From: a virus
Taxonomy: Duplodnaviria; Heunggongvirae; Uroviricota; Caudoviricetes
Reading direction: 5' to 3' (one strand)
DNA: 12,515 nucleotides
Virus record (IMG/VR): IMGVR_UViG_2531839620_000015
In this document: piece by piece, positions 1 to 12,515 of the stretch
How positions within the stretch are numbered: the first letter of the stretch is position 1
How the letters are laid out: each line of letters opens with the position of its first letter
Translations under genes and position numbers: made by a program
The notes under the pieces: generated by a model
What the model saw: only the letters and a program-made list of their open reading frames with translations
Told to the model about the DNA's origin: nothing
The model's database searches: none

Positions 1-1541
1 TGCTTCGCCTGACCGTGGCCGCGGATGACGGCAGTGAGCGGCTGGTCAGCACGGCCCGGACGACGGAAACCACATACCGCTTCACGCAACTGGCGCTGGG
101 GAACTACAGGCTGACAGTCCGGGCGGTAAATGCGTGGGGACAGCAGGGCGATCCGGCGTCGGTATCGTTCCGGATTGCCGCACCGGCAGCGCCGTCACAG
201 ATTGAGCTGACACCGGGCTATTTTCAGATAACAGCGGTCCCGCGTCTTGCGGTGTATGACCCGACGGTACAGTTTGAGTTCTGGTTTTCGGAAACGCGGA
301 TTACCGATATCAGGCAGGTTGAAACCACAGCCCGCTACCTTGGCACGGGGCTGTACTGGATAGCCGCCAGTATCAATATCAAACCGGGCCATGATTATTA
401 CTTTTATATCCGCAGTGTGAACACCGTTGGCAAATCGGCATTTGTGGAGGCTGTTGGCCAGCCGAGTGATGATGCATCCGGCTATCTGGATTTTTTCAAA
501 GGAGAGATAGGGAAAACCCATCTGGCTCAGGAGTTGTGGACTCAGATTGATAACGGTCAGCTTGCGCCTGACCTGGCGGAAATCAGAACGTCCATCACGG
601 ATGTCAGTAATGAAATCACGCAGACCGTCAATAAGAAACTGGAAGACCAGAGTGCAGCGATCCAGCAGATACAGAAGGTTCAGGTTGATACAAATAATAA
701 CCTGAACAGCATGTGGGCAGTGAAGCTGCAGCAGATGCAGGACGGACGCCTTTATATTGCGGGTATCGGTGCCGGTATTGAGAACACCTCTGACGGCATG
801 CAGAGTCAGGTGCTGCTGGCGGCAGACAGGATTGCGATGATTAATCCTGCGAATGGCAACACAAAGCCGATGTTTGTTGGTCAGGGCGATCAGATATTCA
901 TGAATGAAGTGTTCCTGAAATATCTGACGGCTCCCACCATTACCAGTGGCGGCAATCCTCCGGCATTTTCCCTGACATCAGACGGAAAGCTGACCGCGAA
1001 AAATGCGGATATCAGTGGCAGTGTGAATGCGAACTCCGGGACGCTCAACAACGTCACGGTAAATGAAAACTGTACGATTAAGGGCATGCTGGAGGCGACT
1101 CAGGTCAGAGGTGACTTCGTTAAAGCTGTATCCAAATCATTTCCGAAACAGGCTGGTACGTGGGGTAACACGGAAACACCAAACGGGACGGTTACAGTCA
1201 CCATCAGCGATGATCATAACTTTGACCGTCAAATCATTATTCCGCCCATTATCTTTAACGGAATAGCGTATAGCGATCCGGGAAGTGGTAATAACCCGGG
1301 AGGTACAAGATACACGGGTTATGGTTTTGAAGTTCGCAAAAACGGTGTATTAATCGCATCCAGAGAAACTAAAGGGGCCATTCCCGGTAGCTACAGTGCG
1401 GTTATTGATATGCCGAGTGGCAGGGGAAGCGTCACTCTGGAGTTTAAGGTTTTCCATAAAGGCAATCAGCGGGCAGGTAATATCACCGACTGTACGGTGA
1501 TTGTGACCAAAAAAGCGGCTTCCGGCATCAGTATCCGTTGA
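1..1541 (+). CDS. J: Host-specificity / central tail fibre protein J, C-terminal ~510 aa (5' end lies off-window; reading frame begins at nt 3)
   Basis: Open frame runs from the window edge to TGA at 1539-1541. It sits immediately upstream of lom-stf-tfa, the canonical lambda order J-lom-stf-tfa. Identity rests mainly on this synteny and on size, not on a remembered sequence match. Confidence 0.75.
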
Positions 1542-1563
1542 AATATTTATAACCCTAATAACG

Positions 1564-1590
1564 GGCGCCAGAAATGGCGCCTTTTTTATT
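1564..1590 (+). terminator. Rho-independent terminator after J
   Basis: Perfect 7-bp stem GGCGCCA (1564-1570) / TGGCGCC (1575-1581) with GAAA tetraloop, followed by TTTTTT (1582-1587). Confidence 0.7.
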
Positions 1591-1611
1591 GCAGAAAATC
1601 GGGAGGTAATT

Positions 1612-2211
1612 ATGCGTAAAGTTTGTGCAGCAATTTTGTCCGCAGCCATTTGTCTGGCCGTATCCGGTGTGCCTGCATGGGCGTCTGAGCATCAGTCCAC
1701 GCTGAGCGCAGGATATCTTCATGCCAGTACGGACGCTCCCGGCAGCGATGATCTGAACGGGATTAACGTGAAATACCGTTATGAGTTTACGGACACACTG
1801 GGGCTGATTACGTCCTTCAGTTATGCCAACGCCGAAGATGAGCAAAAAACGCATTACAGCGATACCCGCTGGCATGAGGATTACGTGCGTAACCGCTGGT
1901 TCAGCGTGATGGCAGGGCCGTCTGTGCGTGTGAATGAATGGTTCAGTGCGTATGCGATGGCGGGTGTGGCTTACAGCCGTGTGTCGACTTTTTCCGGGGA
2001 TTATTTCCGCGTAACTGACAACAAGAGGAAAACGCACGACGTGCTGACCGGAAGTGATGACGCTCGCTACAGCAACACATCTCTGGCGTGGGGGGCTGGC
2101 GTGCAGTTTAACCCGACCGAATCAGTGGCCGTTGATGTCGCTTATGAAGGCTCCGGCAGCGGTGACTGGCGCACTGACGGTTTCATCGTGGGTGTCGGTT
2201 ATAAATTTTGA
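1612..2211 (+). CDS. lom: Lom, outer-membrane beta-barrel protein of the Ail/Lom/PagC/OmpX family (lambda moron)
   Basis: 199 aa. SD GGGAGG at 1601-1606, 5 nt before ATG 1612. N-terminal signal peptide MRKVCAAILSAAICLAVSGVPAWA. C-terminus ...GSGSGDWRTDGFIVGVGYKF matches lambda Lom as I remember it. Position between J and stf as in lambda. Confidence 0.9.
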   Translation: MRKVCAAILSAAICLAVSGVPAWASEHQSTLSAGYLHASTDAPGSDDLNGINVKYRYEFTDTLGLITSFSYANAEDEQKTHYSDTRWHEDYVRNRWFSVMAGPSVRVNEWFSAYAMAGVAYSRVSTFSGDYFRVTDNKRKTHDVLTGSDDARYSNTSLAWGAGVQFNPTESVAVDVAYEGSGSGDWRTDGFIVGVGYKF

Positions 2212-2232
2212 TTAGTAACACAGCGTTATGAC

Positions 2233-2262
2233 AGCCCGCCGGTTCAGGCGGGCTTTTTTGTG
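2233..2262 (+). terminator. Rho-independent terminator after lom
   Basis: Stem AGCCCGCC (2233-2240) / GGCGGGCT (2247-2254), loop GGTTCA, followed by TTTTTT (2255-2260). Confidence 0.7.
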
Positions 2263-2270
2263 GAGTGGGT

Positions 2271-5189
2271 ATGGCAGCAGTACAAATATCAGGCGTGCTG
2301 AAAGATGGTGCGGGAAAACCAATACAGAACTGCACAATCCAGCTGAAAGCAAAACGTAACAGTACCACGGTGGTGGTGAACACGGTGGCCTCTGAAAATC
2401 CGGATGAAGCCGGGCGTTACAGCATGGACGTTGAGTACGGTCAGTACAGCGTCATTCTGTTGGTGGAGGGATTCCCGCCGTCACATGCCGGGACCATCAC
2501 CGTGTATGAAGATTCTCAACCCGGTACGCTGAATGATTTTCTTGGTGCCATGACTGAGGATGATGTCCGTCCGGAGGCACTGCGCCGTTTTGAGCTGATG
2601 GTGGAAGAGGTGGCGCGTAACGCGTCCGCGGTGGCACAGAACACGGCAGCCGCGAAGAAGTCAGCCAGCGATGCCAGCACATCAGCCCGTGAGGCGGCAA
2701 CCCATGCGACTGATGCTGCGGACTCAGCACGCGCAGCCAGCACGTCAGCCGGACAGGCCGCGTCGTCGGCTCAGTCAGCGTCTTCCAGCGCAGGAACGGC
2801 ATCAACAAAGGCTACTGAAGCATCAAAAAGTGCTGCCGCTGCAGAGTCCTCAAAAAGCGCGGCGGCTACCAGTGCCGGTGCGGCGAAAACGTCAGAAACG
2901 AATGCGGCAGTGTCACAACAATCAGCCGCCACTTCTGCATCCACCGCGACCACGAAAGCGTCAGAAGCTGCCTCCTCAGCCAGGGATGCGTCGGCTTCAA
3001 AAGAGGCGGCAAAATCATCAGAAACGAGCGCAGCCTCGAGCGCCAGTAGTGCAGCCTCCTCGGCAACGGCGGCAGGCAATTCCGCGAAGGCGGCCAAAAC
3101 GTCTGAGACAAACGCTAAGTCCTCTGAAACGGCAGCAGAACAGAGTGCCTCCGCAGCAGCAGGCTCAAAAACAGCGGCTGCATTATCTGCCAGTGCCGCG
3201 TCAACAAGTGCCGGGCAGGCCTCAGCCAGTGCCACCGCCGCCGGAAAATCGGCAGAAAGTGCCGCATCGTCTGCTTCAACAGCCACAACGAAGGCTGGCG
3301 AAGCCACTGAACAGGCCAGCGCAGCAGCGAGTTCTGCTTCCGCAGCGAAGACATCCGAAACGAACGCGAAAGCGTCGGAAACCAGCGCAGAATCCTCAAA
3401 AACGGCTGCCGCATCGTCAGCCAGTTCGGCGGCGTCATCGGCATCATCTGCGTCTGCTTCAAAAGATGAGGCGACCAGACAAGCGTCAGCAGCGAAGAGC
3501 AGCGCCACGACGGCATCCACGAAGGCGACAGAGGCAGCTGGTAGTGCGACGGCAGCAGCTCAGAGCAAAAGTACGGCGGAATCTGCAGCAACGCGCGCTG
3601 AGACAGCGGCAAAACGGGCAGAGGATATTGCATCCGCCGTGGCGCTTGAGGATGCGAGCACGACGAAAAAGGGGATAGTACAGCTCAGCAGTGCGACTAA
3701 CAGCACTTCCGAGTCACTGGCGGCAACGCCAAAAGCCGTTAAGGCCGCGTATGAGCTGGCTAACGGGAAATACACCGCACAGGATGCAACGACAGCACAG
3801 AAAGGGATAGTTCAGCTTAGCAACGCGACCAACAGCACATCTGAAATGCTGGCGGCAACGCCAAAGTCGGTAAAGGCAGCCTATGACCTTGCTAACGGGA
3901 AATATACTGCTCAGGACGCTACGACAGCACAAAAAGGAATTGTCCAGCTCAGTAGTGCAACCAACAGCGCATCTGAAACGCTTGCCGCGACACCGAAAGC
4001 AGTGAAAGCAGCTAATGATAATGCGAATGGTCGGGTACCTTCTGCCCGTAAGGTGAATGGTAAGGCGCTTTCATCGGATATAACACTGACGCCGAAAGAT
4101 ATTGGTACGCTTAACTCAACAACAATGTCATTCAGCGGTGGTGCTGGTTGGTTCAAATTAGCAACGGTAACCATGCCACAGGCGAGTTCTGTTGTTTCAA
4201 TTACGTTGATTGGTGGCGCGGGATTTAACGTGGGGTCACCTCAACAGGCAGGTATATCTGAACTTGTTTTGCGTGCAGGTAATGGTAATCCGAAGGGGAT
4301 TACTGGTGCTTTATGGCAGCGCACATCGACAGGGTTTACAAATTTTGCCTGGGTCAATACATCTGGTGATACTTACGATATTTACGTTGCAATCGGAAAT
4401 TATGCGACTGGTGTAAATATTCAATGGGATTATACCAGTAATGCCAGCGTGACGATTCATACGTCACCAGCATATTCTGCTAATAAGCCGGAAGGGTTAA
4501 CGGACGGTACAGTTTATTCACTCTATACGCCATCAGAGCAGTTTTATCCGCCTGGCGCACCAATCCCGTGGCCATCAGATACCGTTCCGTCTGGCTATGC
4601 CCTGATGCAGGGGCAGACTTTTGACAAATCTGCATACCCGAAACTTGCAGCCGCTTATCCGTCAGGCGTGATCCCTGATATGCGTGGCTGGACGATTAAG
4701 GGCAAACCTGCCAGTGGTCGGGCCGTATTGTCTCAGGAACAGGACGGCATTAAATCGCACACCCACAGCGCCAGCGCATCCAGTACGGATTTGGGGACGA
4801 AAACCACATCGTCGTTTGATTACGGCACTAAATCCACGAATAACACCGGGGCGCACACGCACAGTGTGAGCGGTACAGCCGCAAGTGCCGGAAACCATAC
4901 TCATAGTGTCACAGGCGCATCAGCAGTCAGCCAGTGGTCACAAAATGGGTCAGTACATAAGGTAGTGTCTGCGGCCAGTGTGAATACAAGTGCTGCAGGA
5001 GCGCACACTCATAGTGTCAGCGGCACAGCTGCATCTGCAGGTGCTCACGCACATACTGTCGGTATTGGTGCTCATACGCACTCTGTTGCGATTGGCTCAC
5101 ATGGACACACCATCACCGTTAACGCTGCGGGTAACGCGGAAAACACTGTCAAAAACATCGCATTTAACTACATTGTGAGGCTTGCATAA
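2271..5189 (+). CDS. stf: Side tail fibre protein Stf (lambda Stf-like, 972 aa from ATG 2271)
   Basis: SD GGAG at 2262-2265, 5 nt before ATG 2271 (the ORF track starts at GTG 2265). N-terminus [17 protein letters not shown]...[16 protein letters not shown] and C-terminus ...[31 protein letters not shown] match remembered lambda Stf. Contains a long Ala/Ser/Thr-rich low-complexity region (about 2640-3640), three tandem 44-aa repeats, and His-rich HTHS motifs near the C-terminus. Confidence 0.9.
3660..4013 (+). repeat. Three tandem 132-bp (44-aa) coding repeats inside stf (phage tail-fibre repeat type), third copy truncated
   Basis: Repeat units begin at 3669, 3801 and 3933 (exact 132-nt period). 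Units read KGIVQLS[SN]ATNS[TA]SE[SMT]LAATPK[AS]VKAAY[ED][15 protein letters not shown]. Copies differ mostly at synonymous positions. Confidence 0.85.
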
Positions 5190-5767
5190 TGGCATTCAGA
5201 ATGAGTGAACAACCACGGACCATAAAAATTTATAATCTGCTGACCGGAACTAATGAATTTATTGGTGAAGGTGACGCATATATTCCGCCTCATACAGGTC
5301 TGCCAGCAAACAGTACCGATATTGCACCGCCAGATATTCCGGCTGGCTTCGTGGCTGTTTTCAACAGTAATGAGGCATCGTGGCATCTCGTTGAAGATCA
5401 TCGGGGTAAAACGGTTTATGACGTGGCTTCCGGCGACGCGTTATTTATTTCTGAACTCGGTCCGTTACCGGAAAATGTTACCTGGTTGTCGCCGGATGGA
5501 GAGTGTCAGAAGTGGAACGGCACATCCTGGGCGAAAGATGCAGAAGCAGAAAAACTGTTTCGGGTACGGGAGGCAGAAGAAACAAAAAACAGCCTGATGC
5601 AGGTAGCCAGTGAGCATATTGCGCCACTTCAGGATGCCGTAGATTTGGATATTGCGACGGAGGAAGAGGCATCGTTACTGGCTGCATGGAAGACATATCG
5701 GGTATTGTTGAATCGTGTTGATACAACAGTAGCAGCGGATGTTGAGTGGCCAGTCGCCCCACAATAA
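5189..5767 (+). CDS. tfa: Tail fibre assembly protein Tfa (lambda Tfa-like)
   Basis: 192 aa. ATG 5189 overlaps the stf stop (TAATG). N-terminus [18 protein letters not shown]...[26 protein letters not shown] matches remembered lambda Tfa. Stop TAA at 5765-5767. Confidence 0.9.
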
Positions 5768-5773
5768 AAAGAA

Positions 5774-5803
5774 AAAGCCATCGACAGAAATATCGATGGC
5801 TTT
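5774..5803. terminator. Bidirectional hairpin terminator between convergent tfa (+) and the acetyltransferase gene (-)
   Basis: 11-bp perfect stem AAAGCCATCGA (5774-5784) / TCGATGGCTTT (5793-5803) with an 8-nt loop. On the minus strand it is followed by a T-rich tract (TTTTCTTTTTATTG). On the plus strand the U-tract is weak (TTTATGT). Confidence 0.6.
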
Positions 5804-5810
5804 ATGTACT

Positions 5811-6383
5811 CTATTTATACAATACAACACCACTCTTTTTAGTTATATATGTGCAGTTTGATGGTATATCTTTATTTATAAAAGACATTGCACCTATTTT
5901 TACATTATCCCCAATTTTACGTGATAATCCAATGATGCAACAATTAGCTCCGATATCAACGTTACTACCAATTTTTACTCTTGAACTAGGCATATCACCA
6001 TCTATCTGTCCAATGGTAGTATTCTGTCGTAATACCAGATTTTCACCCGCATCAACAGCAAAATGAACAACAATTCCAGCATGATGGGGAATTGTCAACC
6101 CTTTTCCAATATTTGCGCCCAATCCTATTTCACAACCAAACTTGTTAATTATTTTACTGTTTAACTTTTTGGCTGCTTTCTTATGTAATTTATTACCATT
6201 AATATACATTTCGTTAGCCAACCGCCACCAGAAAAGGAAATTCCGGTTACGCTGCTTTTTCTCTCTTAAAAGCCTCCAGATATCCATACGTTTCCGCCGA
6301 ATTACTTCATGTTTCCAGAAGTTTTTTAAATTAGTAGAGTTTCCAAATAAAACAAAGTGAATTGCCATTAAGTAAGATAGCAC
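5811..6383 (-). CDS. Hexapeptide-repeat O-acetyltransferase, serine acetyltransferase (CysE) / WcaB-like left-handed beta-helix family; likely start GTG 6383 (the ORF track extends to GTG 6416)
   Basis: The C-terminal half shows imperfect hexapeptide repeats (IGANIGKGLTI, HAGIVV, TTIGQ, VKIGSNVDIGANCCIIG, KIGDNVKIGAMSFI), preceded by a basic/aromatic N-terminal region as in the SAT family. A perfect SD AAGGAG lies 6 nt upstream of the in-frame GTG at 6383-6381. Neither GTG 6416 nor ATG 6368 has an SD. The gene is visibly AT-rich relative to its flanks. No signal peptide or transmembrane segment is apparent. Confidence 0.7.
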   Translation of the reverse strand: MLSYLMAIHFVLFGNSTNLKNFWKHEVIRRKRMDIWRLLREKKQRNRNFLFWWRLANEMYINGNKLHKKAAKKLNSKIINKFGCEIGLGANIGKGLTIPHHAGIVVHFAVDAGENLVLRQNTTIGQIDGDMPSSRVKIGSNVDIGANCCIIGLSRKIGDNVKIGAMSFINKDIPSNCTYITKKSGVVLYK

Positions 6384-6434
6384 GATAATCTCCTTAATTA
6401 TTATTTCAGACCACACATGTTATAAGGTTAAGAG

Positions 6435-6463
6435 ATTATAAAATCCTGTTATTTGTTATTCAA
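6435..6463 (-). promoter_or_regulatory. Candidate sigma70 promoter for the acetyltransferase gene
   Basis: Read on the minus strand: -35 TTGAAT (plus coordinates 6458-6463), 17-bp spacer, -10 TATAAT (plus coordinates 6435-6440), about 50 nt upstream of the GTG 6383 start. Confidence 0.4.
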
Positions 6464-6539
6464 AAACAATTTTCTGAGAAGGACATACAACAGCAAGTCG
6501 CCAGTCACCTTCATCAGGAAATTGGCGACATACGTTAAA

Positions 6540-7028
6540 TCAGAGCAGCCCCTTAACTGAGCTGGCCGCGCTATTAAGGGATGATGTCACCTTATCTTTG
6601 AAGCCGGACAGCATATCGCTGAACGATGAGGATTGCAGGCGCTCCCGCAAATCCTCATCACAGCGTTCAAGAGTCAGTGAAAATTCTATCTTTTTCGCCT
6701 TACCGTAGCGATCAAACTCGGAGCGGGTCGTATTCGTTCCGGTCAGGACATACATGCCGTAAATCTGCCCGACGCCATCAATCAAAGGCCAAGGACGTCC
6801 TGTATATGCCTGCGTGGTCAACAACGACAGCGACACTTCGCCACCAGTAATCTCAGGATAAAGAACACCAGAAAGAACGATGCGATCATCACCTGCACCG
6901 ATATACTGCCAGCTTGCTGAACGGTTAACGCGTTCATTTTTCACATGTCGCCAGCTTTTGTTTTGCTGTAACTGCTGATGCGGCAACGTGCGCAGCTCAA
7001 AAACAAACATGCCGTAGATCATCATCAT
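6540..7028 (-). CDS. P2 gpU-like tail protein; likely start at the third Met (7028), ORF track start 7034
   Basis: Motifs LYPEITGG, WPLIDG and KIEFSL and the MMMIYGMFVF N-terminus resemble the phage P2 GpU family as I remember it. It lies immediately downstream of the tape measure, as in P2 (T-U). SD GAGGAG (7042-7037) is 8 nt from ATG 7028. The tape-measure stop (7043-7041) overlaps this SD. Confidence 0.7.
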   Translation of the reverse strand: MMMIYGMFVFELRTLPHQQLQQNKSWRHVKNERVNRSASWQYIGAGDDRIVLSGVLYPEITGGEVSLSLLTTQAYTGRPWPLIDGVGQIYGMYVLTGTNTTRSEFDRYGKAKKIEFSLTLERCDEDLRERLQSSSFSDMLSGFKDKVTSSLNSAASSVKGLL

Positions 7029-7040
7029 GGCCATGACTCC

Positions 7041-9880
7041 TCAATCTTTATCGTAAAAACTGCCACGCCTGGCACGGGCGCGCCGTTCCATTTCTGCCCT
7101 GACCATTTCGCCGACCAGTTTCGCCAGTTCGCGGGGATTCTGCGTAACAACGTTATGCAGATGAACATGAATTTCACCGCCAAATCCGGAGGCAACAGGC
7201 TCCCGGTTACGGGAAGTTGCAGGAACTGATGCCACTGGCGATCGTATGGCCTCCACCACCGGGCGGGAGCTGGCCGCAACAACAGGGACCAGCGCCGGAG
7301 GCAGCGGAGCCGGGACCACGGGTGTGATATTAATTGCGGGGGCAGGCTTACTGACCTGCGCAATCTTCCGCTCCTGCCACTCCCCACGAACAGCAAGTGC
7401 GCGGGGCAGGTTCTTAAAGACAATATCGCCGGGGCCAATGCGTTTTTTTGTCTCATCAACCAGCTTACCTGTGTTATCAGCAATTTTGCTGAGTCTGCGT
7501 AGCGTGCCGGTATTGCTGTCTGTGAGAGGTTTGTTGTCTTTGGGTTTATCATCTCCGGTGCCATTGCTATTTCCCGCAGACTTCGGCGGATTGATTTTCG
7601 CAATGTCTCCCTGAAACAGAGCAACCTTGTCCTGAAGAATGGCCGCACGTTGTGCGTCTTCGATTTTCTTGCGCGCCCTTTCCGCTTCATCCGGAAGCAC
7701 ACCGAGTTTTTCAAGTATCCACGCCAGCGTATCCAGCAACATTTTTGCAGGCGTCAGAACAAGCTGTAACGCACCACCAAGAACGTTACCGAATACCTCG
7801 CCAGCACTGGTACATTTATCCAGCGTTTCCTTGCTGGACTCCATCGGTGACAGCAGCGATTTAAACCAGTTAAACACCTGGCTGAACCGCTTCCGATTAC
7901 GTCAAAAACAGGGCCAAACCGTTCAAAGGTGTCGCGCAACGGGGTCAGCCTTTCCATAATCCCGCTGAACACCCCGGCAAAGAAAGCCCTGATAGGATCC
8001 CAGTATTTCCAGATAAGAACGGCAGCTCCGGCAAGCGCAGCCACGATAAGACCAACCGGACTGAACAACGCCCCGATAACGCCTCCCAGTAAAGAAACGG
8101 AACCCGTCACCATTCCCCATAGCGCAGGTAACACCCTGACGACATTCATTGACCGGGTAAGAATGTCAAAACCAAGACGCAGGGTGGCCAGCTTCCCGTA
8201 AAGCACCCCAATAACCAGCGACAACGAGCCAATCGTTGCAGTCATTGCCAGCAACGCACCGCCTGCTATCAGTAGCTGGCGCGTCAGTACCGGATGGGCC
8301 TGCGCCAGCGAGGTGATTTTTTCAAGCACCCGCGTGAGCCACTGCGTGACAGAACGCAGCGGACCGTCAACCAGATCACTGATGCGAATACGAAGACCTT
8401 CCCATGCGCTGTCGAGATTTTTCAGGTCCCCATCAAGATTATCAGCCATTACTTTTGCGACGCGATCGGCCTCTCCCCTTGCCCCCTGCAATTCTCTGGT
8501 CAGTTTTTGCAGCTCTCCTGAACCAGCCGCCGCAACAAGCGTCTGCAAACCAACGAACGCCTCTTCTCCGGCGATGTCCTTGAAGAAGGAGACCTGGTCC
8601 ACCTGTCCGTATTTTTGTGTCGCCTTATAGAGATCAAGCAGCACATCCTCCATCGGGCGCATTTTGCCTCTGGCGTCAGCAACTGACACCCCCAGCTCTT
8701 TCAGTGCATCAGCCGCAGCTTTTGGCGGTGATGCAAGGCGGGACAGACTTGCGCGCATGGCCGTGCCAGCATCGCTTCCGCGAAGACCATTATTGGCAAG
8801 CATCCCGGCCATGGCCGCCGCTTCTTCAAGACTGATACCAAGTTTTGCGGCAACCGGACCGGTATACTTCATGGTTTCGCCCAGCGCGCGTAAATCAGTA
8901 TTGGTCCGGGTAAATGCTGCTGTCAGCGTATCGCCCACCCGGTCCATTTGATCGGCTGTCAGGTTGAACTGTGTGAGGATATTGGAGCCTATATCAGCCG
9001 TCTCGCCGAGTTCGACGCCACCTGCCAGCGCCATATTAAGAACACCGGGCAATGCGGCCTGAATGGCCTGCGGAGTAAAACCAGCCATTGCCAGAAAGCT
9101 CTGCCCACTGGCGGCATCACTCGCAGTAAACTGTGTTTCAGCAAGTTTTAACGCCTGCTCACGCAGCGCCTTAAACTGCGGGCTGTTTTTGTCGATTCGC
9201 GTCAGTGCCTGAACGCGGGACATCTCTTTGCCGAACCCGATCGCAGGCTGCAAAAAACGCCCGGCAGCATAGCCGCCCGCCGCTGCCGCACCAATTGCCA
9301 GCGCACCACCTGTTTTCAGTTTTCCCGCGGTTTCCTGCGCGTGCGAATACCGCTCACGCGCCTGCGTTACACGCGCAAGCGCCTGCCGTTCGCGTTCAAG
9401 CTGGTTGTTGTATTGTTCGGTGCGTCTGATGGCCTGCTGAATGGTGTTATCGCTGCCTGTCAGGGAAATGCCGTGGCGTTTCAGCTCTCCGCCAAGTTCC
9501 CTCATTTTCTGAATTTCCCGTGTGCGCGATTCATTCAGGCGTTCAAGCCGGGTGCTTAACTGCTGCATCAGCTTTTGTTGTTTTTCGCTGAGCACTGTAC
9601 CCGTGCGTTGTAACTGATTAAGGGCGTTAAGCTGGCGTCGTGCTTTCACGATGCCAGCATCCGCTTTACTGACAGCGTCGCGGGCGCGCTCAAATGATCG
9701 CGCCTGACGCTCGAGATTTTTGATCGCCCCCTGCGTTCGCTGGATGGAGTCACCAAACTGCCCCATCAGGCGGCGTGCGTTTTCGGCAGGTCGGGTCAGC
9801 CTGTCAACGGCGCTGAAAGCGACCCGGATATCAAGAGTCTTCATTGTCTGCATTCCCGCTGCGAAGTGCCGCCCGCTCAC
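7041..9880 (-). pseudogene. P2-like tail tape measure protein, split into two overlapping reading frames (7754-9880, 708 aa, and 7041-7877, 278 aa) by a frameshift
   Basis: The long ORF is helix-rich with a hydrophobic/Gly-rich segment typical of tape measures, and sits between E/E' and gpU as in P2. Its last ~40 codons (…ARCLTGLNRCCHRWSPARKRW…) look non-protein-like. The other frame opens at 7901 and reads plausibly (FNWFKSLLSPMESSKETLDK…) through to a stop that overlaps the gpU SD. The start is a GTG at 9880 and is uncertain; in-frame ATGs follow at 9853 and 9844. Confidence 0.7.
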
Positions 9881-10360
9881 GCCAGCTAACCACTTCGCCG
9901 GGCGTCATCATGAAGATTTCGGCGGGCGACCAGTTAAAAATAACGGCAATATCTGCCACAAAGTCTTCTATGTGCTCAAAGCACACAACCGTGATCAGGC
10001 TTCCGTCGCCTGTTCGTTCTTCCCGCCAGAGTCCGCACCGCTCAAAAAATTTACGGCAACCACACATAACTGAATAAAGTCACGGGATGCCATTTTTTTG
10101 ATCGTCACTTCATCCAGTCGCGGTGATGTCACGCGTGACAGCAGCGTAAACATGGATTCCGCTTTCAGATTCAGCACATCAGACAGCGACAAATCTCGCA
10201 GAGATCCAGCCTGCTCAATAGCCCCGGTGATCTCCACATACGTGATTTTTTCGCCGCCTCGCTCAATTGGTTGGGTAAGTTTTACACCACGCTCACTGGT
10301 TTCTTTCACAGTGTCAGTAACTACCGTGTTTTCGGTATCGATGTTTTTCGTCTCTTTCAT
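9831..10360 (-). CDS. Tail assembly chaperone E+E' fusion, made by programmed -1 ribosomal frameshift
   Basis: Minus-strand heptamer TTTTTTG (plus coordinates 10043-10049) lies in the E / E' overlap. The -1 frame continues open for about 70 codons (…KFFERCGLWREERTGDGSLITVVCFEHIEDF…) to TGA at 9833-9831, overlapping the tape-measure start, as in P2 E/E'-T. Confidence 0.6.
9995..10360 (-). CDS. Tail assembly chaperone, P2 gpE-like (121 aa)
   Basis: SD AAGGAG 7 nt before ATG 10360. Small acidic protein between the tube gene and the tape measure, with the slippery site in its 3' part, as for P2 E. Confidence 0.65.
   Translation of the reverse strand: MKETKNIDTENTVVTDTVKETSERGVKLTQPIERGGEKITYVEITGAIEQAGSLRDLSLSDVLNLKAESMFTLLSRVTSPRLDEVTIKKMASRDFIQLCVVAVNFLSGADSGGKNEQATEA
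10043..10049 (-). promoter_or_regulatory. Slippery heptamer TTTTTTG for the E/E' -1 frameshift
   Basis: Sequence GTA AAT TTT TTG AGC in the E frame; the T6G run is the classic chaperone slip site of P2-like and other long-tailed phages. Confidence 0.6.
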
Positions 10361-10414
10361 CAGGAAACTCCTTTCAGTCAGAGGCGACGCACTGCGCCGC
10401 CTGCATATTACTTA

Positions 10415-10927
10415 TCAGCCAAGCCCAAGCGCGGAACGGATGCGATCGGGCACAATGTCCTTGCCGTCCTTCCGGTAAATGAAGTTCAGCAGGTCAATCT
10501 CCCACAACGGGCGATCGTTAACACTCAGCTTGTAGTAGGTGTTTTTAATGGCGTAAGTGTGTGATGTGGCTTCGCCCTGTTTGGCTTCCCCCATATCAAT
10601 TTCCGTCACACGTCCGCGCATTTCGACTTCATACAGGTCGCTTTCATCATCGGTGTAGTATTCCCCCGCAAAACGCAGTAGCGTGCCGTCAATCGTGCCG
10701 CCATACTTCAGGAACAGCTCACGAACTGCGCCCCCCATGACAAAGCTCGCATCAAGCGCGGAGTCGTCCAGGCCGAGGTCAATACTTACCGCACCCATCA
10801 TGCCACCACCCCGGTAGCTGTCGGTTTTGCGCGTCAGTTTAGGCAGGGTGACGGACGTCACCTTACCCACTTCGTTTTCACCATCCACAAACAGCGTAAA
10901 AAAGCGAAGATGTTTTGGTACAGCCAT
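10415..10927 (-). CDS. Major tail tube protein (P2 FII-like, 170 aa)
   Basis: Motif VTLPKLTRKTDSYRGGGM and overall length match remembered P2 FII. ATG 10927 overlaps the sheath stop (TGATG). SD GGAGGT upstream. Confidence 0.85.
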   Translation of the reverse strand: MAVPKHLRFFTLFVDGENEVGKVTSVTLPKLTRKTDSYRGGGMMGAVSIDLGLDDSALDASFVMGGAVRELFLKYGGTIDGTLLRFAGEYYTDDESDLYEVEMRGRVTEIDMGEAKQGEATSHTYAIKNTYYKLSVNDRPLWEIDLLNFIYRKDGKDIVPDRIRSALGLG

Positions 10928-12111
10928 CAGGCACCTCCCAGCACCGCAAATGCGGGACCAAAGAATTCATCAGTAAACGACTGGTAAAGCTCCATGTCTT
11001 CCAGCGGAGGAACGGGCGTATATTTGTAGCGAATACGCACACGCCCCTGACGTAAATTCGTGGTGCTGTTATCCTCGATGTCATACCAGCACTCCGCGCC
11101 AATCAGTTTCCCGGCAGTAACCAGTGAATCCAGTTTTGCCCTGATGGCACTGATAACATCCTTCACGTTCGCAGGTGTCAGTGGACTGTCGATGGTTTCA
11201 AACTGCGCTTCCGCAATTGAATCAGCCAGCACCTGTGCGGTTCGGGTATACACCTCAAAGATGTAGGCGTTCGTTTCCGGTGTGCGGTTGCCCCAGAAGC
11301 GGAACCCGTTGCGACGAATAATGGTCGTGATTTCTTTGTTGTTGAGGCTGTTGGCATCACTGTCTTCGGCCTGCAACGACCAGAACACATGCCTCGACAT
11401 CCCAAGCACATTTTTAACCGGAACGTTGGACAGCGATTTGTGCCAGCCCTGCTCATGGTCAATGTACGCACGAAGGCCGCACGCATAAGCAGGCGCGGGG
11501 AACGTTTCGTTTTTGCCACTTTTCAGGTTGTAGGCGATGAAGTCAGGCCATAAGAGCATCACCTCACGTTCGTTGAATTTCTGGCGGTAGGTAATCGCCT
11601 CAGCCATCGTGTTACAACCATGACATGTGGCATACACAAACGCGCGCAGTTTACCCGCAATCACGCACAGGGATTTTGTTACCGCCTCCGTGTCCAGCTC
11701 CGGCGCGGCCAGAATACGCGGACGGTATCCGATGCTTTCATCCTGCTCTGCAACAAGCAGCGCATACATCCCCGTATAGCTGCCGTCAGATTCAGAACCA
11801 CCGATAACCAGTTGATCCTGCGTCTTACCGCCTTCTTCTTTGTGTTCAGCCACGCGAACGACGATCACTTTTGTGCTCACCTGGTCTGCGATAGCCTTAA
11901 GCGCACGATAAAGCGTCCCCGTAGTCCCGCATTTTCCCAGCACGTCATTGACGCGGGTCAGCAGTGTGGGCTTGTTCAGCGGGAACAGCTCCGCGTCCGC
12001 ATCATCTGCCGTTGCCACGATACCGATAACACTGGAATCAACATCATTAATCGCTGTTACCAGGTCGGTACTTTCCGTAACACGGGCACCATGAAAACGA
12101 GTTTCACTCAT
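10927..12111 (-). CDS. Contractile tail sheath protein (P2 FI-like, 394 aa)
   Basis: Motifs GFRFWGNRT, YTRTAQV and YTPVPPLE and the length match remembered P2 FI. SD AAGGGG 8 nt before ATG 12111. Confidence 0.9.
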   Translation of the reverse strand: MSETRFHGARVTESTDLVTAINDVDSSVIGIVATADDADAELFPLNKPTLLTRVNDVLGKCGTTGTLYRALKAIADQVSTKVIVVRVAEHKEEGGKTQDQLVIGGSESDGSYTGMYALLVAEQDESIGYRPRILAAPELDTEAVTKSLCVIAGKLRAFVYATCHGCNTMAEAITYRQKFNEREVMLLWPDFIAYNLKSGKNETFPAPAYACGLRAYIDHEQGWHKSLSNVPVKNVLGMSRHVFWSLQAEDSDANSLNNKEITTIIRRNGFRFWGNRTPETNAYIFEVYTRTAQVLADSIAEAQFETIDSPLTPANVKDVISAIRAKLDSLVTAGKLIGAECWYDIEDNSTTNLRQGRVRIRYKYTPVPPLEDMELYQSFTDEFFGPAFAVLGGA

Positions 12112-12268
12112 AGCTTCAGCCCCTTGTATCCGTTAAATGATTCGGCAACAATCATCACCCACCACGCGCGTAATCTCACCCCTGCGCCGTTCTCCCGCCA
12201 CGGCGACAACAAAAAGCAGTAACCCCCTCCGCACGCACATGCGACCATGCCGCACAGGGAGGGAACAG

Positions 12269-12321
12269 ATGACCGACACCACCATGCAATTGCTCAGTCA
12301 GGGCACAGACCACGTGAAAGT
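12269..12321 (+). other. 5' fragment (17 codons, MTDTTMQLLSQGTDHVK) of an ORF with a strong RBS, apparently cut by the IS insertion
   Basis: SD GGGAGGG 6 nt upstream of ATG 12269. The reading frame runs directly into the IS terminal sequence at 12322. Too short to assign a function. Confidence 0.3.
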
Positions 12322-12515
12322 TGAACCGCCCCGGAAATCCTGGAGACTAAACTCCCTGAGAAAGAGGTAAACAGGATGACTAAAAATACTCGTTTTTCCC
12401 CCGAAGTCCGTCAGCGGGCGATTCGTATGGTTCTGGAAAGTCAGGATGAATATGACTCACAGTGGGCGGCAATTTGTTCCATTGCCCCAAAGATTGGCTG
12501 TACGCCGGAGACTCT
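12322..12515 (+). mobile_element. IS3-family insertion sequence, left end (continues off-window)
   Basis: The terminal sequence begins TGAACCGCC… (IS3-family ends start with TG), about 54 bp before the orfA ATG. The OrfA N-terminus resembles IS629/IS1203-type elements from memory. Confidence 0.75.
12376..12515 (+). CDS. IS3-family transposase OrfA (helix-turn-helix N-terminal part), 3' end off-window
   Basis: Translation [46 protein letters not shown] closely resembles the OrfA of IS629-like elements as I remember it. SD GAGG upstream. Confidence 0.8.

Follow-up and report, generated by a model that had tools for sequence, protein, structure and literature searches.

The window analysed here is the whole of a 12,515-bp draft contig (AOEK01000082.1 of assembly GCA_000335435.2), and the features described below crowd its right-hand end (Table 1). 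A tail sheath gene, FI, lies on the minus strand and is followed by a gene-free spacer, by the start of a plus-strand reading frame and, from exactly 12322 and directly adjoining that frame, by an insertion sequence (IS) of the IS3 family. The contig ends 194 nt into this element, as the IS is a repeat. The region is the right-hand stump of a defective P88-like prophage (Xuanwuvirus, Peduoviridae) of Escherichia coli O157:H7 that sits beside leuZ, and the closest named phage to the locus is Escherichia phage P88. For the comparison with other genomes we used a reference in which position 1 corresponds to window position 12112, and the IS junctions of 12 complete genomes were mapped on it.

Table 1. 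Features around the FI/D spacer of the window, and simple IS629-type insertions mapped at the same locus in complete genomes. Positions are those of the window unless given as reference positions.
Feature	Position	Strand	Basis or remark
Tail sheath gene FI, 394 aa	10927..12111	-	Pfam Phage_sheath_1, Gp18_domIII_N, Phage_sheath_1C; RefSeq annotation of identical loci
FI/D divergent control region, 157 bp, gene-free	12112..12268	.	151-157-bp spacer in relatives
-10-like hexamer GATGAT, predicted FI (PF-type) promoter	12151..12156	-	46 nt from dyad centre
Ogr/Delta-type dyad with one mismatch, TCTCCCGCCACGGCGACA (TCT-N12-ACA), centre 12199.5	12191..12208	.	conserved position; function predicted
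-10-like hexamer GACCAT, predicted D promoter	12243..12248	+	46 nt from dyad centre
Shine-Dalgarno sequence GGGAGGG of gene D	12257-12263	+	read directly; start as annotated in P88 and RefSeq orthologues
D', first 53 nt of gene D	12269..12321	+	identical to start of the O157:H7 D pseudogene
Chimeric 33-codon ORF (D' and read-through of the IS end)	12269..12370	+	translation
IS629/IS1203 left end	12322..12515	+	100% identity to 1310-bp copies annotated in RefSeq
Simple IS629-type insertion	reference 82-84		duplication TCC, inside the dyad; strain NCCP 13914
Simple IS629-type insertion	reference 380-382		duplication GTT, inside D' (L008, D nt 223-225)
Simple IS629-type insertion	reference 450-452		duplication ACC
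Simple IS629-type insertion	reference 492-494		duplication CTT
Simple IS629-type insertion	reference 529-531		duplication TCT
Simple IS629-type insertion	reference 539-542		duplication GTTG
Simple IS629-type insertion	reference 573-575		duplication AAA
Simple IS629-type insertion	reference 1401-1403		duplication CAG

The reading frame that starts at 12269 (MTDTTMQLLSQGTDHVK) runs for 17 codons plus 2 nt before it meets IS sequence, and by homology it is the 5' end of the structural P2-type gene D (baseplate hub, 'late control D'). The PGAP annotation of ordinary O157:H7 genomes places at this start a 267-nt pseudogene named 'phage late control D family protein'. Full-length D proteins beginning with this N-terminus (MTDTTMQLLSQGTDPVK...) are encoded in P88 (366 aa) and in an intact relative, the prophage of strain AH21E028 (L004; 369 aa), with which 15 of the 17 residues of the stump match. 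The 53-nt stump is itself too short for a Pfam score; the full-length orthologue matches Phage_GPD (PF05954, E = 1.9e-17) and over residues 19-120 is 56% identical to P2 gpD. The 210 bp from 12112 to 12321 recur (≥95% identity) in 1,370 of the 5,426 complete E. coli genomes searched; given this conservation and the continuation into a 369-aa D in intact prophages, the ORF is not a chance ORF. An earlier note on this DNA, made from the letters alone, had seen a plus-strand gene with a strong Shine-Dalgarno sequence cut by the IS, and in this it was right; its motif and start codon also stand, while the spacing between GGGAGGG and the ATG counts to 5 nt and not to the 6 nt it gave.

The intact D frame is not retained. 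Past 12321 it reads through the IS end as a chimeric ORF that terminates at TAA 12368-12370, ahead of the orfA start codon of the IS and within the orfA ribosome-binding region. Within the stretch 12362-12379, this stop codon lies inside or adjoins the AAGAGG ribosome-binding site of IS629 orfA. Speculatively, transcription from the D promoter would enter the IS629 transposase gene, and translational coupling between the two frames may be possible. The 33-aa chimeric product has no PADLOC match, and scans with PADLOC and NCBIfam gave it no defence assignment.

The element at 12322 is IS629/IS1203, a mobile element common in E. coli O157 and a member of the IS3 group within the IS3 family, which bears out the family and the boundary named in the earlier note. 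All 194 nt present are identical to complete 1310-bp copies, labelled in RefSeq as 'IS3-like element IS1203 family transposase, programmed frameshift'; this is the element known in the O157 literature as IS629. The terminal repeat opens at 12322 with TGAACCGCCCCGG... and extends as an imperfect repeat to about 12346; its left version reads TGAACCGCCCCGGAAATCCTGGAGACT, its right version (...CCAGGAAACCCGGGGCGGTTCA) is present on the full copy in one closed genome (L003), and the ends are TG...CA as in the IS3 family. From the ATG at 12377 the window carries 46 codons of orfA. In the full copy, which is 100% identical, orfA matches HTH_Tnp_1 and orfB matches rve/HTH_21 (Pfam), with an A-run at the orfA/orfB overlap and a programmed -1 frameshift in the RefSeq annotation. 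Depending on the strain, two IS629-type variants occur at this locus: one is identical to the window's copy, and the other, which has the plain annotation 'IS3 family transposase', matches it at only about 95% identity (L002 7404-8713; L008, L011-L013). It is this 95% variant that the common O157:H7 form has at reference 1401.

What, then, lies on the far side of the IS? Since the window ends within the element, the sequence beyond it in this genome was deduced from closed genomes that have the identical left junction. The junction of the window, in which reference position 210 abuts the IS, is found as one contiguous piece in only three of the 5,426 complete genomes, those of strains 08-3914, 06-3462 and CEC13004, to which window positions 5234-12515 are 99.97-100% identical over 7.3 kb. 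In all three, the right flank of the IS is GGTTTTGTTCGCC, at reference 1114 and thus inside an IS30 element, and the corresponding right junction (...GGGGCGGTTCA joined to GGTTTTGTTCGCC) occurs in the same three genomes. Between the two junctions 903 bp are missing, namely D nt 54-267 and about 690 nt of IS30, and beyond the IS follow 484 nt of IS30 and then 83 nt more of D. The IS is flanked by AGT on the left and GGT on the right, so that the 3-4-bp target-site duplication is absent from the copy with the window's junction in all three genomes (L003, L005, L006). Only 21 of 47 IS629 sites in four O157 genomes have target duplications, of 3-4 bp (PMC3271280); a missing duplication is therefore common for IS629 and indicates secondary rearrangement, not that the element belongs elsewhere.

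We conclude that the junction of the window is the product of an IS-associated deletion and not of a simple insertion. A second, independent case of the same deletion type is found in strain 8_140198 (L012), whose right IS junction is that of strain TR01 (L002; CAG, reference 1401) and in which 918 bp are gone on the left side of the IS. The simple insertion assumed in the earlier note, the 3-bp duplication it proposed to look for beyond the IS and its placing of the IS at the right-hand boundary of the P2-like remnant all give way to these observations, made by proxy in the three closed genomes. Its two-sided check on the reading frame came out divided, in that the frame does not continue beyond the IS while the ORF does have homologues.

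With the right side of the element out of view in the draft contig, the source genome might nonetheless carry a simple IS629 insertion at AGT (D nt 51-53), complete with a 3-bp duplication and an intact D'/IS30 stretch beyond it, in which case the three closed genomes would have arisen later by deletion, or the agreement would be coincidental. Simple insertions of IS629-like elements are known both within D' (L008, GTT) and in the spacer (NCCP 13914, TCC), so such an event would be in keeping with the locus. However, the right end of IS629 joined to D nt 51 onward (GGTTCA joined to AGTGCCGGATTTT) has no contiguous match in the 5,426 complete genomes, in each of the three genomes that share the left junction the right flank lies inside IS30, and the window is nearly or fully identical to precisely these three over 7.3 kb. 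We consider a simple insertion in the source genome unlikely and retain the IS-associated deletion. The second conceivable parental junction, IS30 (...GACGTGGT) joined to the left end of IS629, likewise gave two-piece joins only and no contiguous match in the same 5,426 genomes, so that neither parental junction was found. The microhomology at the deletion ends consists of GT only (2 nt). An origin driven by 3 nt of AGT microhomology was considered and dropped, as the reference shows that GT alone is shared.

The wider history of the locus can be read from the other genomes. The common O157:H7 form, as in TR01, consists of 267 nt of D, IS30, 83 nt of D and then leuZ, the remaining part of D and ogr being deleted. 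In the non-O157 strain 2014C-3011 (L013), IS30 sits at the same point, after D nt 267, and the remainder of D is retained, which implies that the IS30 insertion predates the loss of the 3' part of D and of ogr. The retained D remainder in this strain carries a VgrG/Pvc8-family annotation. Along the D'/IS30 stretch of about 1.4 kb, the 12 mapped genomes hold eight simple insertion positions and two deletion derivatives (L001-L003, L008-L013, L026), and further IS629 positions are implied by match spans, for example in PA2 and TX 265-1. IS3-family ends inside IS30 are frequent on plasmids too. IS629 has landed in the D'/IS30 stretch beside leuZ again and again, and deletions next to it recur there as well.

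From this we reconstruct the following course. In the O157:H7 ancestor, D was already dead through IS30 at D nt about 267, and most of D as well as ogr had been lost beyond IS30. IS629 elements then struck the IS30/D' stretch repeatedly, and in the sublineage of the window an IS629 copy came to abut D nt 53, with the loss of 903 bp and no target duplication. An IS that lacks a duplication and replaces adjacent DNA is classically explained by recombination between direct copies or by a transposase-dependent deletion of adjacent DNA. For the window, two origins are the most likely: two IS629 copies in direct orientation recombined, or a deletion of the transposase/IEE type took place beside a single copy. 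Taken as a whole, the account of a P88-like stump, a D stump, a control region with a single dyad and an IS30 insertion followed by an IS629-associated 903-bp loss is one in which we have good confidence.

Why D, of all genes, should face the sheath gene becomes clear from the gene order. In P2, the order is G, fun(Z) (divergent), PF, FI to U, D and ogr. In P88 and the intact relative L004, tail fibre and tail-fibre assembly genes are followed by an invertible segment with its invertase, by U-T-E-FII-FI on the opposite strand and by D, downstream of which L004 has ogr and then hok. FI is thus the first gene of an FI-FII-E-T-U block that is inverted in this lineage relative to P2, leaving FI and D divergent. 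P88 and L004 are 97.5% identical across the 5' end of FI, the spacer and D, and window positions 6534-12319 are 93.8% identical to L004. The inverted layout recurs in Enterobacter phage phiT5282H (Novemvirus), in the Klebsiella phages 3LV2017 (Reginaelenavirus) and ST16-OXA48phi5.4 (Reipivirus) and in Serratia phage KSP20, so that it spans five Peduoviridae lineages, counted as four named genera plus KSP20. P88, Chuche, phiT5282H, KSP20, 3LV2017 and ST16-OXA48phi5.4 all have a gene-free FI-D spacer of 151-157 bp.

The inversion bears directly on the reading put forward in the earlier note, in which a Z/fun-type accessory or defence gene, lodged in the hotspot upstream of the sheath gene, was cut by a fresh IS that marks the end of the remnant. 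This reading draws on P2, where FI has fun(Z) as its divergent neighbour in a variable slot, and on the presence here of an ORF with a strong Shine-Dalgarno sequence that an IS interrupts. Yet in every relative the ORF forms the N-terminus of gene D, assigned by PF05954 and the resemblance to P2 gpD; the spacer holds no gene and keeps its length throughout five Peduoviridae lineages as well as 1,370 E. coli genomes; the content of the slot is the same in all seven sequences aligned below; the product has no PADLOC match; and D sequence resumes beyond IS30. Since the inversion of the block places D, and not cargo, upstream of the sheath gene, the site is not homologous to the G-Z/fun-FI hotspot of P2: FI faces D across a 157-bp spacer, and G (tfa) is found past U, on the far side of the block, here as in the P88-like relatives. 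We regard an interrupted cargo gene as very improbable. The IS at 12322 makes an ordinary polymorphism at strain level and has cut no defence gene.

The accessory slot that does vary in this lineage is the one between the tail-fibre assembly gene and U, which in the window spans about 5768-6539 and holds an LbetaH acetyltransferase. This LbetaH/serine-O-acetyltransferase-like gene occupies 5811-6416 on the minus strand; at the same place P88 has its invertible tail-fibre segment and invertase, and O55:H7, LSU61 and 493/89 have a macro-domain gene. Scans of the acetyltransferase with PADLOC and NCBIfam returned no defence assignment. Elsewhere in the block, the tape-measure gene T (7041-9880, minus strand) is split into two ORFs of 708 aa and 278 aa. 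According to RefSeq it is frameshifted in all O157:H7 relatives; L004, P88 and 2014C-3011 have an unbroken T of 2,808 nt. The ogr gene is deleted from the O157 remnant, and an ogr-like gene is present in the intact relative L004.

The least probable reading, that the D'/IS629 junction is a short-read assembly artefact created by a graph path through a common repeat, is suggested by the same contig appearing chimeric at its other side, but the identical junction is contiguous in three independently closed genomes and there is no repeat common to D' and the IS end through which they could have been joined, so that we give it next to no weight. The other side of the contig is a different matter. 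A search with the whole window found no genome covering ≥80% of it, which pointed to a probable mis-join of the left 5.2 kb. By Pfam, this part (1-5317) is a lambdoid J-lom-stf-tfa segment, and positions 4700-5317 are 100% identical to a lambdoid copy (L025). From 5234 onward the window follows the copy in the P2-like remnant, with 2 mismatches over 5234-6600, both to the right of 5318; the lambdoid and remnant copies have an identical 84-bp stretch in common, which spans the junction at 5234-5317. In closed genomes, an IS629 fragment lies exactly at the equivalent of 5234, with P2-type early genes to its left, and the same lambdoid/remnant join occurs in other draft contigs. The left join is probably a short-read assembly mis-join, the alternative being a real stf/tfa recombination.

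In late promoters activated by Ogr or Delta, a TGT-N12-ACA dyad is centred about 55 nt upstream of the start site. A pattern search found no exact TGT-N12-ACA in 12112-12268, as the earlier note had stated for the late-promoter dyad; a version with one mismatch (TCT-N12-ACA) nevertheless stands at a conserved position. A one-mismatch search taken alone performs at chance level (65 sites observed, 62 expected), and the dyad owes its credibility to the cross-lineage alignment and not to that search. In this alignment of seven phages or prophages from five Peduoviridae lineages, every spacer (7/7) holds exactly one T[G/C]T-N12-ACA, whose distance is 82.5-88.5 nt to the FI ATG and 68.5-71.5 nt to the D ATG. 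The columns T.T and ACAACAA do not vary. The consensus TGT-N12-ACA is perfect in KSP20 and 3LV2017, and the window, P88, Chuche, phiT5282H and ST16-OXA48phi5.4 have the TCT form.

The dyad lies exactly midway (46 nt) between two opposed -10-like elements. Columns G1, A2, A5 and T6 of GATGAT and columns A2, C4 and T6 of GACCAT are invariant, and the stretch from the dyad to the hexamer GACCAT is free of indels in the seven sequences. A scan of 11900-12515 for sigma-70 promoters and terminators found neither. The conservation and the geometry of the dyad and hexamers lead us to propose a late promoter of the Ogr type that works in both directions from a single activator site in the spacer. The IS lies at least 66 nt downstream of the predicted D start and leaves the spacer intact. 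As ogr is deleted from the remnant, the predicted promoter is probably silent unless another P2/P4-type activator is present. More tentatively, and at somewhat less than even odds in our judgement, one dyad may drive divergent promoters of the sheath operon and of D in the inverted-block Peduoviridae (Xuanwuvirus, Novemvirus, Reginaelenavirus, Reipivirus and KSP20); the predicted switch of the O157 remnant being intact, a P2/P4-type activator resident in the same cell could then fire the sheath-tube operon and transcribe into IS629. In strain NCCP 13914 (L026), an IS629 at the equivalent of window 12193-12195 splits the predicted activator site, and IS30 is intact.

In essence, a known IS adjoins what is left of a structural gene that is itself known, in a defective prophage of a known type. 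Its consequence for the cell is essentially nil, with the tape-measure gene frameshifted, D truncated and ogr absent. Polymorphisms of IS629 in the prophage remnants of O157:H7 have been well documented and serve in strain typing. The junction described here is a lineage marker of a small O157:H7 sublineage that comprises the three closed genomes and this draft contig, and the recurrent landing and deletion site beside leuZ bears on how IS-typing patterns are read. Two further points bear on the mining of P2-like prophages for defence islands. First, the synteny rule taken from P2, by which the region upstream of FI is a cargo hotspot, is not transferable to P88-like phages with their inverted tail block. 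Second, exact searches for TGT-N12-ACA miss late-promoter sites, including the PF site of P2 itself.

Finally, we would like to place the locus beside the known systems that it resembles. The element shares with IS629/IS1203 of E. coli O157:H7 complete identity over the 194 nt present; it differs in that the window-type copy has no 3-4-bp duplication and a 903-bp loss alongside. IS629 sits mostly in prophages and causes small structural polymorphisms and adjacent deletions (PMC3271280, PMC9943667). IS629/IEE-associated deletions adjoining the IS have been documented in EHEC, and they resemble the present case in having one deletion end exactly at the IS629 terminus and in the strain background (PMC9943667). 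However, excision of the IS is the normal outcome in the IEE model; here the IS is retained, and the microhomology is only 2 nt. Recombination between two direct copies explains the structure equally well.

The closest counterpart of the FI-D region is that of P88, an inducible phage (PMC5285337) with the same layout of U-T-E-FII-FI, a 157-bp spacer and D on the other strand. The spacer of P88 is identical in sequence to that of the window, the dyad included. The two differ in that D is intact in P88, while the window has 53 nt of D, a frameshifted T and no ogr. The paper on P88 (PMC5285337) says nothing on gene order or late promoters.

The likeness to the PF promoter of P2 lies in a dyad about 82-88 nt upstream of the sheath ATG and in a GAxxAT hexamer 46-47 nt from its centre. 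The annotated PF site is TGT-N12-CCA, itself one mismatch off the consensus, against TCT-N12-ACA in the window, and its centre lies 82.5 nt from the FI ATG; the GAAAAT -10 hexamer follows 47 nt from the dyad centre and the mapped start 7-9 nt further downstream. The PF site (L014 2556-2584; AF063097 17555-17583) lies within a GGTTG-N14-CAACC dyad. In P2, fun(Z) is divergent from FI and D is the last gene of the F operon, whereas in the window D is the divergent gene and the dyad is apparently shared. A comparable arrangement has been predicted for the Stenotrophomonas phage Smp131, in which one TGT-N12-ACA-like site (nt 4381-4398, both strands) is assigned to the divergent promoters PP' and PO' (PMC3931495). 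There, too, a predicted dyad is common to two divergent late operons, but the pair is P/O rather than FI/D, the phage is distant, and both cases are predictions only. Beside these precedents, the single-dyad divergent late promoter that we predict to be conserved in inverted-block Peduoviridae would be a mildly new point.
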